DNA from: Minisyncoccia bacterium
Lineage (GTDB): Bacteria; Patescibacteriota; Minisyncoccia; Phycocordibacterales; UBA918
Direction: 5' to 3'
Length of the DNA: 64,000 bases
Assembly: GCA_046598345.1 (NCBI GenBank)
Contig: JBKJIT010000003.1
Coordinates: forward strand, 5,089-69,088
Shown here: piece after piece, positions 5,240 through 53,233 of the stretch
Layout of the letters: each line of letters starts with the position of its first letter
How positions within the stretch are numbered: the first letter of the stretch is position 1
Position numbers and translations under genes: made by a program
Notes under the pieces: model-generated
What the model was told of the DNA's origin: nothing
The model's input: the letters and a program-made list of their open reading frames with translations, nothing else
Databases searched by the model: none

Positions 5240-5364
5240 TGCTCAAAAAAAGTTGGGCGATACTCAATATGAATAAAAATACAGAATATAAGGTATAGAG
5301 TGTTAGGTGTTGGGTGTGAAATATCGAACACGGGGTATTGGATATGAAATACGAAATGTGGAAT

Positions 5365-5410
5365 GTCGGGTGTCGGGTGTCGGGTGTCGGGTGTCGGGTG
5401 TCGGGTGTCG
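5365..5410. repeat. Tandem heptamer repeat (GTCGGGT)x6.5, preceded by degenerate GT-rich copies from about 5290
   Basis: gtcgggtgtcgggtgtcgggtgtcgggtgtcgggtgtcgggtgtcg. Confidence 0.9.
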
Positions 5411-5968
5411 TCAAATCCTAAAATATTTCCGCAGATGCTTGTCGTTTTCAATGTAATCTGACGTAAGATAAAGCACATCTGAACTGAGTCCGAGGTGTGA
5501 TTTTAAAAGTAGAATAAAATCATCACACGCATACGGATACACCCATACACTTTTCTGAAGCATGTAAAATCCGTACAATTTCATACCTCGACGAAGCTCC
5601 TTTCTCACTTTCTCTTTCGTATTCGGTACGTCAAAAACAACAACTCTCCACCTCTCATCCCATTTCTTTTTCTCGGAAGATTCTATCCTCTGATGCCTGA
5701 GGGCAATTTCCCACTTACCCTTCTTTGTAACCTCAAGTACTTTCTCGCCGCCCTCATTGTGTGTCTGTTTAATAAGCCCTGATCTGAGCAGTGATTCTAT
5801 GTTCCTCTTGATAGATTGTCCGGGTGAATACTTCTTACGCTTAAAAGTTCCCCCCAGAAGTGAAAGTGCATTCGGTGCCACTACAGCGATAGTTACCACC
5901 CCGAGGGTACCAATAGTCATAAGAACCCCTTCTCCAATTTTGCCTAGTTTTTGTCGCGTTAGTGACAT
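5411..5968 (-). CDS. PaaX-like C-terminal domain protein with N-terminal TM helix and winged-helix-like segment (putative membrane-anchored regulator)
   Basis: Motif KKKWDERWRVVVFDVPNTKEKVRKELRRGMKLYGFYMLQKSVWVYP matches the PaaX_C / Cas2-like W-D-x-x-W...F-D-V-P...L-R...G-F...L-Q-x-S-V-W pattern. Hydrophobic stretch VLMTIGTLGVVTIAVVAPNALSLLGG. An alternative start at 5920 (MTIGTL) has a better SD (GGAGAAGGGG). Confidence 0.45.
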   Translation of the reverse strand: MSLTRQKLGKIGEGVLMTIGTLGVVTIAVVAPNALSLLGGTFKRKKYSPGQSIKRNIESLLRSGLIKQTHNEGGEKVLEVTKKGKWEIALRHQRIESSEKKKWDERWRVVVFDVPNTKEKVRKELRRGMKLYGFYMLQKSVWVYPYACDDFILLLKSHLGLSSDVLYLTSDYIENDKHLRKYFRI

Positions 5969-9355: not shown

Positions 9356-9428
9356 CCGCCCATAGCTCAGCCGGTAGAGCAGCTCCCTTTTAAGGAGAAG
9401 GTCCTTGGTTCGATCCCAAGTGGGCGGA
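9356..9428 (+). tRNA. tRNA-Lys (anticodon UUU)
   Basis: Cloverleaf by hand: acceptor CCGCCCA/TGGGCGG, D-stem GCTC/GAGC, anticodon loop CTTTTAA, T-stem CTTGG/CCAAG with TTCGATC loop. No encoded CCA. Confidence 0.85.
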
Positions 9429-9437
9429 CTCACAAAA

Positions 9438-48125: not shown

Positions 48126-50267
48126 TTAGGCGATCGGTTTCCTCTCCGGCGCTTTGATTCCTTTCTTCTCTGCGAAATCTGGATCTGCCTTTTTAATGGA
48201 GAGGCCAATTTTTCCTTCTTCAATCTTTGAGACGACGACCGGGACGACCTCCCCCACTTTAAGGAGTCCCTCAACGGTGTCGAGGCGCCAGGACACAATT
48301 TCAGAAATGTGAACGAGTCCTTCCGTTGAGTCGTTAAGTTTTGCAAACGCACCGAAGGTCGCGATGCGTGTAATCGTTGCATCAAGTCGTTCACCAATTT
48401 CGAATACGCGGGTAATTGCTTTAATTCTCTCCAAGGCTCGTTCGGCTGAACCATCTTTCCCTGTTATGTAGACGGTACCATCGTCCTCGATGGTGATCTC
48501 ATCGACGCCCGTATCATCTTTGATGCCGTTAATGGTCTTCCCCCCACCTCCAATCACAAGACCAATTTGGCTTGGAAGAATGGTATGAACGAGAATTTTT
48601 GGCGCTCGGGGAGAAATATCAGGTCGTGGAGAAGCAATTTCTGCAATGAGCACGTCAAGAATTTGGAGTCGGGCGAGCCGCGCTTTTTCTAGTGCTTCTG
48701 CGAGAATTTGTACGGGTATTCCACCCACCTTCACGTCCATTTGAATCGCTGTAATACCTTTGGTTGTTCCTGCAACTTTAAAATCCATATCACCAAACTC
48801 ATCCTCTGGGCCTTGAATATCGGTGAGGAGGGCGTACTCACTTTCGCTTCGCATCATGAGTCCTGAAGCAATGCCGGCAACCGGGCGTGTAATCGGAACA
48901 CCCCCGTCCATAAGTGCGAGTGTTGATGCGCAGACGGATCCCATTGAGCTCGAGCCATTTGATGACATGGTTTCTGAAACAAGTCTCACGGTGTATGGGA
49001 ACACCTGCTTAGTCGGGAGTATGGGGAGGAGTGCTTTCTCAGCGAGCGCACCGTGTCCGATCATTCTGCGATTTTGTCCTCCGACGCGACCAGTCTCACC
49101 TACTGAGAATGGTGGAAAGTTATAGTGGTGCATGAACTGCTTCTTCGTATCATTTTCTTCGATGGTGTCGAGTATCTGTGCATCATCTGGCCCACCGAGC
49201 GTAAGTGCAGTAAAAATGTGTGTTTCTCCGCGATAAAAAATACCGCTGCCATGAAGTACGGGAGAAATACCGCCCGCTTGTGCGTAGAGTTTGCGCACCT
49301 CATCCATGCCTCGTCCATCTGCACGCTTTCCGTCATCGATTGCGCCACGGTGAATCTCGGCATCAACTCCCTGCTCGAATAGGTCGCTTGCGTCAGTGGA
49401 CTCAGCCTCTGGAAGTCGTTCCTTCACGAGTGCCATCCATGAGTCCTTAAGTTCATAAATATGAGCCTTTCCAGAGCGGTTTGAGAACAGCGTTTCAGAA
49501 AGTTTTACTTTCATCTCAGTTTCAAAAAGCATCCGCATGTCGAGTGGAATTTCTTCAAGTCTCATTGCACGCTTCGCTTGTCCAATTTCTGCAATAATTT
49601 GCTTCTGGAATGCTTCGATTGCTGTATTGATAGTGGCCGCTTGTGTAAGTGCACTCAAAATCTCAGCTTCAGCAATTTCATTTCCGGCAGTTTCAATCAT
49701 GTTGATGCTGCCGTCTTTTCCGCACGCGAGTACTTCATAAGAGAGCACACCGTCTTCTCGCTCCTTATATGTTGGGTTGATGACAATAGCGCCCGTATCA
49801 TTTCGCTTACCAATACGTACTGCGCCGACGGGTCCTCCCCAAGAAATCGGAGAGGTGGCAAGCGCGAGTGATGCCCCGATAATGCCGAGTGTGTCCGGGT
49901 CATCTTCTCCCATTGCGAGCACGGTCACAATGACCTGTATTTCATTCCGAATTCGGTGATCAAAGAGTGGGCGAATCGTACGGTCAACAATGCGTGCAGA
50001 AAGTACTGCCCCGTCACTCGGCCGTCCTTCTCGTCGCATAAAGCGGCTTCCTAAAATCTGTCCGCTTGCATAAAATTTTTCCTCAAACTCAACAGAAAGT
50101 GGAAAATAGGAAAGTCCAGGATTTTCCCTGCCCATTACTGCTGTTACAAGAATCACCGTCTCCCCCATGCTGACCATTACGGAACCATGTGCTTGGTTCG
50201 TGAGGTCGTTAAATTCTGCAGTAAGTGTCTTCCCTCCAACTTCGTGTGTAAACGATCGTTTCTCCAT
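48126..50267 (-). CDS. pnp: Polyribonucleotide nucleotidyltransferase (PNPase)
   Basis: Two RNase PH domains + KH + S1, typical N-terminus. Confidence 0.9.
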   Translation of the reverse strand: MEKRSFTHEVGGKTLTAEFNDLTNQAHGSVMVSMGETVILVTAVMGRENPGLSYFPLSVEFEEKFYASGQILGSRFMRREGRPSDGAVLSARIVDRTIRPLFDHRIRNEIQVIVTVLAMGEDDPDTLGIIGASLALATSPISWGGPVGAVRIGKRNDTGAIVINPTYKEREDGVLSYEVLACGKDGSINMIETAGNEIAEAEILSALTQAATINTAIEAFQKQIIAEIGQAKRAMRLEEIPLDMRMLFETEMKVKLSETLFSNRSGKAHIYELKDSWMALVKERLPEAESTDASDLFEQGVDAEIHRGAIDDGKRADGRGMDEVRKLYAQAGGISPVLHGSGIFYRGETHIFTALTLGGPDDAQILDTIEENDTKKQFMHHYNFPPFSVGETGRVGGQNRRMIGHGALAEKALLPILPTKQVFPYTVRLVSETMSSNGSSSMGSVCASTLALMDGGVPITRPVAGIASGLMMRSESEYALLTDIQGPEDEFGDMDFKVAGTTKGITAIQMDVKVGGIPVQILAEALEKARLARLQILDVLIAEIASPRPDISPRAPKILVHTILPSQIGLVIGGGGKTINGIKDDTGVDEITIEDDGTVYITGKDGSAERALERIKAITRVFEIGERLDATITRIATFGAFAKLNDSTEGLVHISEIVSWRLDTVEGLLKVGEVVPVVVSKIEEGKIGLSIKKADPDFAEKKGIKAPERKPIA

Positions 50268-50394
50268 AAGTAAGTCATTTTATTGAACGATCCAGATTTC
50301 AGATTTCAAGTATGCTTGAAACCTACCTATCTAGATCGCACCTAATAACCCCCTGAGTGTATCAGAACTGGGAAAAATTTACATAAAGACAGTA

Positions 50395-50412
50395 TCCCGC
50401 GCGCTGAACTGG
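50395..50412. repeat. Direct repeat copy 1 GAACTGGAGGAGGTTCGA (context GCGCTGAACTGGAGGAGGTTCGAGC)
   Basis: About 21/25 identical to the copy at 51021-51045. Confidence 0.55.
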
Positions 50413-50490
50413 AGGAGGTTCGAGCCCGGTATTGCGTATAAAAAGAAACCGCTCGACGAGCGAGCGGCTCGTGGGGCGGGTGGATGTGGG

Positions 50491-50877
50491 TTAGGCGTCG
50501 TTGAATTGTTGCCAGAACTCCTTCCGAGTCTTGACCGGCTTCACGACTTCTGCCGAGTTGTGGTCGAAGAGGAACAGGGCGAACGGATGGTTTGGGAAAC
50601 CACCTTCCATCCAGTACTCGGCCGCTTCAGGTGACTTCTGCTGGAGTGCTTCAATCGCATGCGTCTGAAGCACGATGTAGCCGGGGTAGTCCGGAACTTC
50701 GAATCCAGTCTCCACGTCGAGGGTGCGGTCACCCTCATTGGGCGGTACCCCATCGTGCGTAAACATGCAGGGCACCTCGACCCCGATCCATTGCTCACGG
50801 ATTGAAAGAGGTGCACCACCACGGGGAACGGAAATAAGACGAATCGTTCCCAGGTCCTCCATTTGAATTTGCCTCAT
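50491..50877 (-). CDS. Hypothetical protein, GC-rich ORF of foreign-looking composition
   Basis: Start at MRQIQMEDLG. Own rho-independent terminator (CCGCTCGCTCGTCGAGCGG + TTTCTTTTT on minus) at 50440-50470. Confidence 0.45.
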   Translation of the reverse strand: MRQIQMEDLGTIRLISVPRGGAPLSIREQWIGVEVPCMFTHDGVPPNEGDRTLDVETGFEVPDYPGYIVLQTHAIEALQQKSPEAAEYWMEGGFPNHPFALFLFDHNSAEVVKPVKTRKEFWQQFNDA

Positions 50878-51025
50878 GACAAGACTCCCGAGGATGAACA
50901 CATGCCGACATAGGCAAGATGGGATAAGTAAACTTGAATAAGTGCTCGAAGTCAATCAGTTGTCGAACTCTATTCCGCACAAACGAAAATAACCCCAATA
51001 AATTGGTTATTTTCATTTGTGCGTC

Positions 51026-51043
51026 GAACTGGAGGCGGTTTGA
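51026..51043. repeat. Direct repeat copy 2 GAACTGGAGGCGGTTTGA, followed by 12-bp perfect palindrome TTTGAAACTCAT-GGG-ATGAGTTTCAAA (51037-51066). An 18-bp hairpin lies just upstream at 50977-51028.
   Basis: By inspection. Confidence 0.55.
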
Positions 51044-51159
51044 AACTCATGGGATGAGTTTCAAAGCTGTTCAGAGATAGTTTTCGAGTAAAGCGAAGAT
51101 AAATACCCTGAACGGGTACTGAACATGTAATGTTCGAACTTTTGTGCTCAGAAATTATA

Positions 51160-51729
51160 CTAAATTTTGTCAGTATCAGTTCCGACAATCTGCTGGATGT
51201 GTTTACGGAATTTGCCGGCGCCGCGGAAACCAATCAAAAATTCTCGTGGATTCTCATCCATATCAATGAAGTCGTCTACGGTTTCTCGAAGTCGTGAGGA
51301 GCTTGAGCGTCCAAACGCGATCGCTTCAACTTGGCAGCCATTCGAACGGACATATTCAACGAGTGGTACGAAGTCACCATCTCCCGTGGCGAGTACGATT
51401 GCATCGACTTTTTGGGAAAGCTTAATGGCATCAATAGCCATACCAACGTCCCAATCGGCTTTTTTTGCTCCCCCGTAAAAAATCTGGAGGTCTTTTGTCT
51501 TTACTTCGATACCAATTTTTTCAAGCGCTTCAAAGAATGACTGCTCTTCCCCACTTTCAGTGGTGACAACGTACGAAATCGCCCGCACGAGCTTACGGTC
51601 ACCAAGCGCAGCCTTTACGACTGCGTCGAAGTTTACTTTTGATTTATGAATATTTTTTGCACTGTGATAAAGGTTTTGTGTGTCAATAAAAATGGCGACA
51701 CGCTGTTCTGCATGTTTAATGATGGACAT
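51160..51729 (-). CDS. NYN-domain (LabA-like, PIN-like) protein
   Basis: VAIFIDTQNLYHS ... LATGDGDFVPLVEYVRSNGCQVEAIAFG. Confidence 0.7.
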   Translation of the reverse strand: MSIIKHAEQRVAIFIDTQNLYHSAKNIHKSKVNFDAVVKAALGDRKLVRAISYVVTTESGEEQSFFEALEKIGIEVKTKDLQIFYGGAKKADWDVGMAIDAIKLSQKVDAIVLATGDGDFVPLVEYVRSNGCQVEAIAFGRSSSSRLRETVDDFIDMDENPREFLIGFRGAGKFRKHIQQIVGTDTDKI

Positions 51730-51884
51730 AGTACATATGTAAAATAATAAATAGAATTCTGAAGCTACCTTCAGAAAAGTTTTAAAAGATCGTGTTCCTA
51801 CAGAACCAGTATACCAAAAAGCATTATGTGAGAAAAGTGAAGAAAAATACACGCGCTTCCTTTGGAAGCGCGTGTATTTTCTTG

Positions 51885-52148
51885 TTACTTAAGGCCAAGT
51901 TTCTTTACGAGGGACTTGTGTGCCTTCTCGTCATGGCGCTCGAGGTATTTGAGATGCTTCCGTCGGTCAGCGACCATTTGCAAGAGGCCTCGTCGTGAGT
52001 GAAAATCATTTCGATGCTTCTTTAGATGCTTTGAAAGCTCATCAATCTGCTTCGTGAGAAGCGCAACCTGAGCCTCAGGCGATCCAGTATCGCTGTCATG
52101 TCGTCGCACGTCTTTCAGTGCGTTCTCTTTCTTTCGTTTTGTAAGCAT
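51885..52148 (-). CDS. rpsO: 30S ribosomal protein S15
   Basis: 87 aa; GSPEAQVALLTKQI...HSRRGLLQMVADRRKHLKYL. Confidence 0.85.
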   Translation of the reverse strand: MLTKRKKENALKDVRRHDSDTGSPEAQVALLTKQIDELSKHLKKHRNDFHSRRGLLQMVADRRKHLKYLERHDEKAHKSLVKKLGLK

Positions 52149-52288: not shown

Positions 52289-53233
52289 GTGCGGTACAAT
52301 AGAGGTATGACGCTTACAGAACTCAAACGACAATTCCTTGAATACCTTGAAATTGAAAAAGGGCGAAGTATTCGCACTATAACGAACTACGATCACTACC
52401 TGACTCGATTTTTAGACTACGCAAAGACGGATTCCCCAGCGAAACTTACCGAAGAAATGGTTCGCGAGTACCGCCTGTGGCTGAATCGCCAACCGGGAAC
52501 AAAAACAGGGCGCCAGCAGGACACATTAAAGCGAAAAACTCAGAACTATTATCTGATTGCCCTTCGTGCATTTCTCAAATTTATGCGCAAGCGTGGCATC
52601 GAGTCTCTCAATCCGGAACGCATTGAGCTCGCGAAGGTGCCGGAGCGTTCGCTTGATCTCATTTCGCCCCAAGAACTAGGGCGTCTTATGGATGGGCCAG
52701 ACGTTCGCACGTTACCAGGGCTTCGTGACCGCGCCATGCTTGAGCTACTTTTTTCCACCGGCCTCCGTGTGTCAGAACTTTGTTCCCTTTCTCAAGAGGA
52801 TGTAGACCTCTCTCGTGACGAGTTTTCTATTCGTGGGAAGGGAGAGAAGATTCGCGTCGTGTTTCTCTCTGACACTGCGAAAGATGCGATTCGAGCGTAT
52901 CTCAAAGAACGAAAGGATTTTGATGATGCGATGTTTATTCAGTACGGAAAGAACGCTAAGCAGGCAGAGATACAAAATAAGGACTTACGGCTAACTCCTC
53001 GGAGTGTGCAACGGATCATGAAGCGCTACGCGACAATCGCCGGCATTACGAGGAAGGTAACCCCGCACGTCATCCGGCACAGTTTTGCTACAGACCTTCT
53101 TTCAAATGGTGCAGATCTCCGATCGGTGCAAGCGCTCCTTGGTCATGCACACATCGGAACGACGCAGGTGTATACGCATGTGACTGACAAGCATTTACGC
53201 GATATACATAAGAAATTCCACTCAAGGAAGTAA
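52289..53233 (+). CDS. Tyrosine recombinase XerC/XerD family
   Basis: R...HxxRHSFAT...LGH...Y catalytic motifs (HVIRHSFATDLL, LLGHAHIGTTQVYTHV). Start GTG 52289 or ATG 52307. Confidence 0.85.
   Translation: MRYNRGMTLTELKRQFLEYLEIEKGRSIRTITNYDHYLTRFLDYAKTDSPAKLTEEMVREYRLWLNRQPGTKTGRQQDTLKRKTQNYYLIALRAFLKFMRKRGIESLNPERIELAKVPERSLDLISPQELGRLMDGPDVRTLPGLRDRAMLELLFSTGLRVSELCSLSQEDVDLSRDEFSIRGKGEKIRVVFLSDTAKDAIRAYLKERKDFDDAMFIQYGKNAKQAEIQNKDLRLTPRSVQRIMKRYATIAGITRKVTPHVIRHSFATDLLSNGADLRSVQALLGHAHIGTTQVYTHVTDKHLRDIHKKFHSRK

Follow-up and report, generated by a model that had tools for sequence, protein, structure and literature searches.

Integration at tRNA genes is known to give rise to tandem arrays of decayed elements flanked by attachment (att) sites (PMC5704250, PMC4383910), and cis-mobilizable elements (CIMEs) of several kb have been described in Firmicutes beside integrative and conjugative elements (ICEs) as well as integrative and mobilizable elements (IMEs) (Pavlovic et al. 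2004, reviewed in PMC5704250). Here, we analyzed a 64,000-nt stretch of contig JBKJIT010000003.1 from a Minisyncoccia bacterium (the whole stretch is hereafter called the window), in which a segment of about 750 nt carrying one gene, designated orfX, separates a gene for an NYN (LabA-like) nuclease-domain protein from pnp, the gene for polynucleotide phosphorylase (PNPase). This segment, located at approximately 51150 to 50399, is probably a horizontally acquired, integrase-less, CIME-like mini-island with tRNA-derived att remnants that resides at a non-tRNA site.

The segment resembles CIMEs in that att-like repeats are present at both ends, integration and transfer genes are missing from it, and its relatives form tandem arrays with the same junction between units. 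However, the units are single genes of 0.4–0.9 kb with their own promoter and terminator, the hosts belong to the candidate phyla radiation (CPR), and no partner ICE or IME is known for them; the att sites are putative, and any mobilization would be hypothetical. Islands located at tRNA and tmRNA genes (Islander type; PMC4383910) provide the second close comparison. As in such islands, a variable segment is missing in relatives; its flanking direct repeats bear a partial likeness to the 3′ end of a tRNA gene. Elsewhere, related cargo copies occur directly downstream of tRNA-Asn or tRNA-Tyr genes together with repeated tRNA 3′ ends. In contrast to these islands, which comprise kilobases to tens of kilobases, the segment has a size of ~0.75 kb and a single gene, neither a tRNA gene at its site nor an integrase within it, and repeats that are merely tRNA-like, with 5 extra nt.

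A single-gene insertion between the NYN gene and pnp

With PNPase as the query, 80 related loci were fetched from species-representative genomes labelled Kaiserbacteria, Nomurabacteria and Paceibacteria (PNPase identity 60–81%), and five window proteins were placed in these loci by tblastn. The order xer (divergent), rpsO, NYN gene, pnp was kept wherever the related contigs reached far enough (about 75 of 80). In 77 loci, an NYN homologue (58–97% identity) immediately preceded pnp; the contigs of the remaining three are cut at pnp. Because this order is kept across the related loci, the NYN gene is not inserted; it is a native, fixed member of the locus in this lineage. We found orfX in none of the 80 loci, which identifies it as the inserted part: orfX and its flanks are an inserted single-gene cassette.

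The first-pass annotation of the window had started from the assumption that rpsO and pnp should be adjacent, and had described an insertion between them comprising the GC-rich ORF plus the NYN gene. The reported distance of 1.6 kb was correct (1617 nt, with both genes on the minus strand, as are all features of the locus described below except xer). The adjacency premise does not apply here, rpsO-NYN-pnp being the conserved arrangement of the lineage. The NYN gene is indeed present (51160–51729; Pfam PF01936, E = 9e-35), but relatives have it at the same place, and new sequence accounts for only about half of the 1.6-kb gap. The gap between the NYN gene and pnp is 892 nt in the window versus about 160–300 nt in the 11 closest relatives. 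In an alignment, the NYN-pnp spacers of relatives contained a terminator of the NYN gene that is GC-rich, plus two conserved elements, an extended −10 box (TGnTACACT) and the pnp leader. The −10 box and the leader are retained in the window; the NYN terminator is gone, and its position, after the NYN stop codon and before the promoter of pnp, is taken by foreign sequence of ~750 nt (about 51150 to 50399). The proposal of a small integrated cassette at 50388–51066 therefore holds with regard to orfX, while the left limit had to be moved from 51066 to about 51150, as similarity to other cassette loci reaches that far.

The composition of orfX (50491–50877, 128 aa) also differs from its surroundings. 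It has 55.6% GC (64% at third codon positions, GC3) versus 46.8% for the window, and 0.9% of 387-nt windows were equally GC-rich. Similarly, orfX had 51–56% GC in 13 other loci versus 37–50% for the host DNA. Both the GC-rich open reading frame (ORF) described previously and its own terminator (50446–50470) were recovered, with the qualification that it is GC-rich only in relative terms, 56% versus 47%.

It is very improbable that orfX was ancestral at this site and lost in the relatives, or that the junction is an assembly chimera. The present assembly alone spans the NYN-to-insert junction, and a contig of the Logan collection breaks at 51136, which speaks for such an explanation. However, absence from all 80 loci at these levels of PNPase identity would require very many independent losses, the GC content of orfX is foreign, and the orfX-to-pnp junction was reproduced by a separate assembly (Logan contig L096) at 100% identity over 987 nt.

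Direct repeats and the junction motif

Direct repeats about 620 bp apart had been reported around orfX. They exist, with 19 of 23 positions identical and a distance of 620 nt; the second copy is located at 51021–51043 as described, and the first copy at 50401–50423, not 50390–50412. The conserved motif is slightly longer than the repeat (23–25 nt). Its upstream copy, TCAAACCGCCTCCAGTTCGACGCAC on the gene strand, covers 51019–51043 (nhmmer E = 3.5e-7), and its downstream copy, TCGAACCTCCTCCAGTTCAGCGCGC, covers 50399–50423 (E = 5e-6), where the insert ends on the right. The motif has the gene-strand sequence TCGAACC-NN-CTCCA-N5-GCGCAC, and a longer junction pattern can be written as TTTTATAC-N14-TCGAACC-NN-CTCCA-N5-GCGCAC. 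A degenerate 18-mer of the repeat had exactly two matches in the 64 kb, compared with a mean of 0.27 in shuffled sequences, among which two or more matches were found in 0 of 100. When the orfX flanks were shuffled, a 19/23 match was reached in 0 of 500 trials. Flanking repeats of the window (0/500) and of the orfX loci L089, L091 and L099 passed this shuffle test (≤2/200); L094 passed too, but the repeat there is a promoter box.

A profile of the motif matched twice in the window, three times in L091/L097 (where orfX separates copies two and three), four times in L090 and once, in a degenerate form, in L002/L003. The downstream motif follows the orfX terminator at the same position in L091, L090 and L002. 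Similarity of other orfX loci to the window mostly started at an invariant TTGACT box and ended past the terminator; in L091/L097 and L090, it extended outward on both sides and took in both repeats. No match to the profile was found in ~1 Mb of related pnp loci, and the motif had no matches in viral contigs. These comparisons indicate that the repeats are imported cassette-junction sequences and not local duplications. The suggestion that they are att-like is thereby strengthened: in unrelated contigs, orfX as well as other cassettes have this motif at their boundaries, and it is similar to the 3′ end of a tRNA (see below).

The other suggestion made for the repeats, that they are target-site duplications, for example of an insertion related to transposons or miniature inverted-repeat transposable elements (MITEs), appears exceedingly improbable. 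Such an event would leave a small insert with a direct repeat on either side, as seen here. However, the repeat is not a local target sequence, which is why we reject this possibility: it recurs at cassette junctions in other organisms. In addition, the NYN terminator is missing rather than duplicated, the repeat length of 23–25 nt exceeds what we would expect of a target-site duplication, and the insert has neither terminal inverted repeats nor a transposase.

Similarity of the junction motif to tRNA 3′ ends

Several orfX loci are associated with tRNA genes. In two unrelated loci, L095 and L099, orfX is located 150–400 nt downstream of tRNA-Asn; in L006, it is ~1.2 kb downstream of tRNA-Asn, and in L001 it lies downstream of tRNA-Thr/Tyr. 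The case of L099 is the clearest parallel. Exact repeats of the last 17 nt of its tRNA-Asn gene (ATCCCTACCCACGGAGC) occur at +197 and +1065 nt. A terminator hairpin comes after each copy, and orfX is situated between the second and third copies, so that both repeats bracket it. In L097, a tRNA-Tyr gene is located 4 kb upstream of a cassette array in the same orientation, and the motif copies of the array lie 4–5 kb downstream of it. The 3′ end of this tRNA-Tyr gene, TCCAGCCCGGCGCAC, which consists of the T-stem 3′ strand, the acceptor 3′ strand, A73 and a C, recurs at 80–87% identity in each of the three L097 motif copies, and two motif copies of L090 match it at 14 of 15 positions (manual count). 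What the sequences show directly is the insertion, the return of the motif at cassette junctions elsewhere, its likeness to the 3′ end of a tRNA, and the tRNA-Asn parallel.

Some of these loci had additional features near the tRNA genes. Similar, internally repeated non-coding sequences were present between the tRNA gene and orfX in L001 (4560–4840) and L099 (9720–9840) (CCAACTNCTTGGCTTT ..., ... ATATTTGTGAC.GAATC), which had no Rfam match at the gathering threshold. Between tRNA-Tyr and the array in L097 (5146–9290), we observed a reverse transcriptase (RVT_1) with a helix-turn-helix (HTH) gene, a DUF559 protein and an NYN protein of a second type; this region looks like a defence-type island beside a tRNA gene. 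In the window, a known RNA was also considered for the repeats and rejected, ARAGORN and Rfam (gathering and E-value thresholds) giving no hits at 50250–51250.

Tandem cassette arrays in other genomes

Arrays of related cassettes were seen in a small number of cases, L090 and L091/L097; the survey is small because the metagenome scan for orfX yielded 6 loci. L090 is a 3.5-kb metagenome contig (1–3510) made up of tandem single-gene units of 420–600 nt. Each unit consists of the motif, a TTGACA-N17-TATTGT promoter 5 nt further on, a small ORF, a hairpin terminator and TTTTTATAC, after which the next motif follows. The ORFs of these units belong to no Pfam family, and the orfX copy in L090 has an in-frame stop. 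Two neighbouring units have ~90 nt of the left end and ~85 nt of the right end in common and carry unrelated cargo. Moreover, the identical right ends diverge within the motif, directly after CTCCA. Constant ends, variable cargo and a similarity break inside the motif are expected of a recombination site and not of a transcription-factor site.

This bears on a different explanation, in which the repeat is a DNA regulatory site (of transcription-factor or UP-like type) upstream of small-gene promoters, with copies serving orfX and pnp and having no role in recombination. The motif is located 5 nt upstream of a TTGACA −35 box in both L090 and L091, and in many loci the −35 box of orfX is preceded, 5–6 nt upstream, by a related TTCGAAC box, as this explanation would have it. 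However, the distance between motif and promoter varies from 5 nt in L090 to ~30 nt for the third L091 copy, ~65 nt with an intervening hairpin for orfX, and ~34 nt for the pnp −10 box, which lies past the downstream copy. The motif is missing from the pnp promoters of the 80 relatives, identical cassette right ends stop inside it, and its 3′ half matches the tRNA 3′ end at the same locus in L097. We therefore consider a purely regulatory role improbable. A promoter of the extracytoplasmic function (ECF) type (GAAC ... CGTC) was rejected as a reading of the motif: the spacing does not fit, and a conserved CCTCC is located within the would-be spacer.

Two further systems of small mobile units were compared with these arrays. 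Integron gene cassettes likewise form arrays of single-ORF units with variable cargo and a recurring junction element. In contrast to integrons, there is no attC imperfect palindrome with RYYYAAC/GTTRRRY cores here (by inspection, the motif is non-palindromic and has no GTTRRRY core), and no IntI, attI or Pc; each unit is equipped with a promoter, and the ends of the units show conservation of sequence and not only of structure. The pdif modules and integrative mobile elements exploiting Xer (IMEX) are small modules between short recombination sites that are moved by a host recombinase in trans, and an Xer-like gene is situated 1.1 kb from the insert. However, the motif has no dif-like 11-6-11 architecture with inverted arms, no GC-skew switch was detected near 50–51 kb, as would mark a replication terminus or a dif site, and xer is syntenic in all relatives, so no tie between it and the cassette can be made.

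It is conceivable, and in our judgement rather unlikely, that CPR bacteria possess a novel system of 0.4–0.9-kb single-gene cassettes in tRNA-anchored arrays, every cassette having a promoter and a terminator to itself. A recombinase acting in trans would take up and reshuffle the cassettes at a site resembling a tRNA 3′ end, and secondary sites, among them the present NYN-pnp spacer, would be seeded now and then. If true, such a system would be functionally analogous to integrons, with neither IntI nor attC. The tRNA-like junction together with the constant cassette ends offers a possible handle on the movement of gene cassettes in CPR bacteria, whose mobile elements are poorly known. By itself, the window represents an ordinary event, a small foreign gene in a spacer with unbroken neighbours, and a modest example of gene traffic; no major question changes unless the cassette system proves active.

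Formation of the cassette and its arrival at a non-tRNA site

In the explanation we favour, that of a CIME-like mini-island, the two repeats would be att-type remnants of recombination by a tyrosine integrase at tRNA genes, a process that builds tandem arrays of decayed elements. The junctions may have been made by a site-specific integrase acting in trans, and units would pile up in tandem and then lose the integrase, in a manner similar to CIME formation and accretion. The cassette could have arrived at its present, non-tRNA site either by use of a secondary site or as an already-flanked piece of an array through illegitimate or homologous recombination.

Several observations weigh against this explanation. 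The 3′ 15 nt of the window copies, TCCAGTTCAGCGCGC and TCCAGTTCGACGCAC, match the tRNA-Tyr 3′ end of L097 (TCCAGCCCGGCGCAC) at only 11 and 12 of 15 positions, respectively (manual count, with the L097 gene as the reference). Relative to this tRNA, ~5 extra nt are present between the T-loop-like TCGAAC and the TCCAG part, and the motif is therefore tRNA-like rather than a clean tRNA duplicate. No tRNA gene was found between the NYN gene and pnp in the window or the 80 relatives (by ARAGORN, and by Rfam for the window), so the cassette is not at a canonical attB; the only tRNA gene in the window, according to both programs, is tRNA-Lys at 9356–9429. Neither the insert nor the sequence up to 10 kb from the L097 array yielded an integrase; orfX is the only supported ORF in 50399–51150 and has no recombinase domain. 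The NYN terminator appears to have been replaced, and precise site-specific integration would have kept it. With regard to the repeats, L090 performed more weakly in the shuffle test (13/200), and seven other orfX loci, about half of those tested, had no significant flanking repeat. Finally, the NYN-to-insert junction is covered by the present assembly alone, L096 beginning inside the insert, and the closest relatives, with 79–81% PNPase identity, are too distant to provide a true empty site at the nucleotide level.

The last step deserves separate consideration. Illegitimate or homologous recombination, following natural transformation for instance, may have imported the cassette as a fragment of a foreign array with its flanks already in place, in which case the repeats would have been passive here. 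The two motifs arrived jointly with the tail of the preceding cassette (51044–51150), all of it collinear with L091; the NYN terminator has been lost, and relatives have no tRNA or attB-like sequence at this site. Such an import would explain all of these points. Furthermore, other unrelated ORFs (126–287 aa, on either strand, one of them with 55% GC) occupy the NYN-pnp spacers of L029, L031, L039, L064, L079 and L086; the spacer is therefore a recurrent, tolerant insertion spot. On the other hand, such an import is indistinguishable from integration at a secondary site followed by deletion, and it still accepts an att-type origin of the repeats, thus being a variant of the mini-island explanation for the last step only. 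Taken as an account of the locus in its own right, it is possible but rather unlikely; as a final step, because of the collinearity with L091 and the lost NYN terminator, it seems at least as likely as secondary-site integration and subsequent deletion. Homologous recombination through the NYN gene was also considered and rejected, as the NYN protein encoded before the array in L091 is only 21% identical to the window protein.

The orfX family

orfX is a real, well-conserved gene family. We identified 55 homologues with 55–100% identity, nearly all of them 127–128 aa in length, and 807 clusters (E ≤ 1e-3) were returned by a profile search. Models of Pfam, NCBIfam, PHROG and PADLOC matched neither orfX nor ten of its distant relatives, and no match to orfX was found among PDB sequences, plasmids or phages. 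We would guess that the product is a small cytoplasmic accessory protein. The window copy is 87–89% identical to copies in Moranbacteria-type contigs versus 70% to the copy in a complete Kaiserbacteria genome, and the genomic contexts of orfX all differ between loci. This distribution, as judged from the sequences, points to horizontal movement. orfX represents a widespread uncharacterized protein family that behaves as mobile cargo.

Organization of the cassette

Reading in the direction of orfX, the insert starts with its left end (51150–51044), which comprises a tail of the right end of a preceding cassette and a non-coding block of ~105 nt (51138–51044). The block starts at a TTCGAAC box (51138–51132) and is thus placed between two TCGAAC boxes, as if nested in the junction motif. 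It is also present in L091 (3731–3833; 3731–3860 when the alignment takes in the whole left end), in L095 (5346–5440; whole left end, 5346–5480) and in two copies in L090 (1775–1860 and 2975–3110), and has a 28-nt exact match to L095, which represents an unrelated organism. Nothing resembling it was found after the NYN stop codon in relatives. The Logan contig from the same strain (SRR31159418_430846; L096/L103) breaks exactly at 51136, the start of this repeated block, which agrees with the presence of several copies, or a polymorphism, of the block in that sample. A look-up of the exact NYN protein returned no record, and that of pnp returned only this Logan contig, which starts within the insert.

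Both strong hairpins reported near the upstream repeat were found, at 51039–51065 and 50976–51023. The first, in the left-end block, has a perfect 12-bp stem (51039–51050/51054–51065) with compensatory changes in its arms. The second (50976–50994/51005–51023; 19 nt, 95% complementary) follows the upstream motif, and in a comparison of flanks its position was that of the terminator hairpin located after the tRNA or tRNA-like repeat upstream of orfX elsewhere. The fold of 50960–51145 had a z-score of −7.3.

A AGTTCGAC box at about 50968 precedes the putative orfX promoter, which consists of TTGACT (50955–50950), a 17-nt spacer and TTTACT (50932–50927). TTGACT is invariant in seven aligned orfX loci, ~70 nt upstream of the start codon. 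Since a consensus promoter scan did not call TTGACT-N17-TTTACT, we treat it as a candidate. It is followed by a 5′-untranslated region (UTR) box, ATCTTGCC-N6-GGCATGTGTTC (50920–50896), which is near-invariant in the seven loci and more conserved than the orfX coding sequence; this box could be an operator or an RNA element. The intrinsic terminator downstream of orfX (50470–50446), a GC-rich hairpin with TTTCTTTTTATAC, is conserved in L002, L090 and L091. The cassette would be self-contained, as it brings along a candidate promoter of the TTGACT type and a conserved 5′ UTR in addition to the 128-aa ORF and its intrinsic terminator. Hence, the coding sequence of the NYN gene stays intact, as do the promoter and the leader of pnp, and pnp would be insulated from read-through.

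Native genes and the pnp leader

The native neighbours of the insert are intact. rpsO (ribosomal protein S15; 51885–52148; Pfam PF00312, E = 2e-29) is a context gene outside the insert that is present upstream of the NYN gene in each related locus whose contig extends that far, and is followed by a terminator hairpin with a 17–18-bp stem and a T run (51843–51881). The xer gene (52289–53233, plus strand), which is divergent from rpsO, encodes an XerC/D-type tyrosine recombinase. pnp (48126–50267) is preceded, downstream of the insert, by an intact promoter with the extended −10 box TGATACACT (50364–50356) and by a leader hairpin (50340–50286). This long hairpin has an outer stem formed by GCGATCTAGAT and ATCTGGATCG, an internal loop AGGTAGG, and an inner stem TTTCAAG/CTTGAAA. 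It is kept in about 50 related loci, with compensatory changes at 10 of 10 outer-stem pairs, and matches no Rfam family.

In Escherichia coli, the rpsO-pnp operon has a pnp leader that is processed by RNase III and is autoregulatory. The present locus is similar in that rpsO is upstream of pnp, a terminator follows rpsO, and a long conserved hairpin occupies the 5′ leader of pnp; by analogy, this hairpin may be the counterpart of the autoregulatory leader. The two differ in that the present lineage has an NYN-domain gene as a fixed third member and a leader sequence that is lineage-specific. The fixed association of the NYN gene with rpsO and pnp suggests a shared role in RNA turnover, and the native rpsO-NYN-pnp arrangement together with the covarying pnp leader hairpin ties the NYN nuclease to this process.

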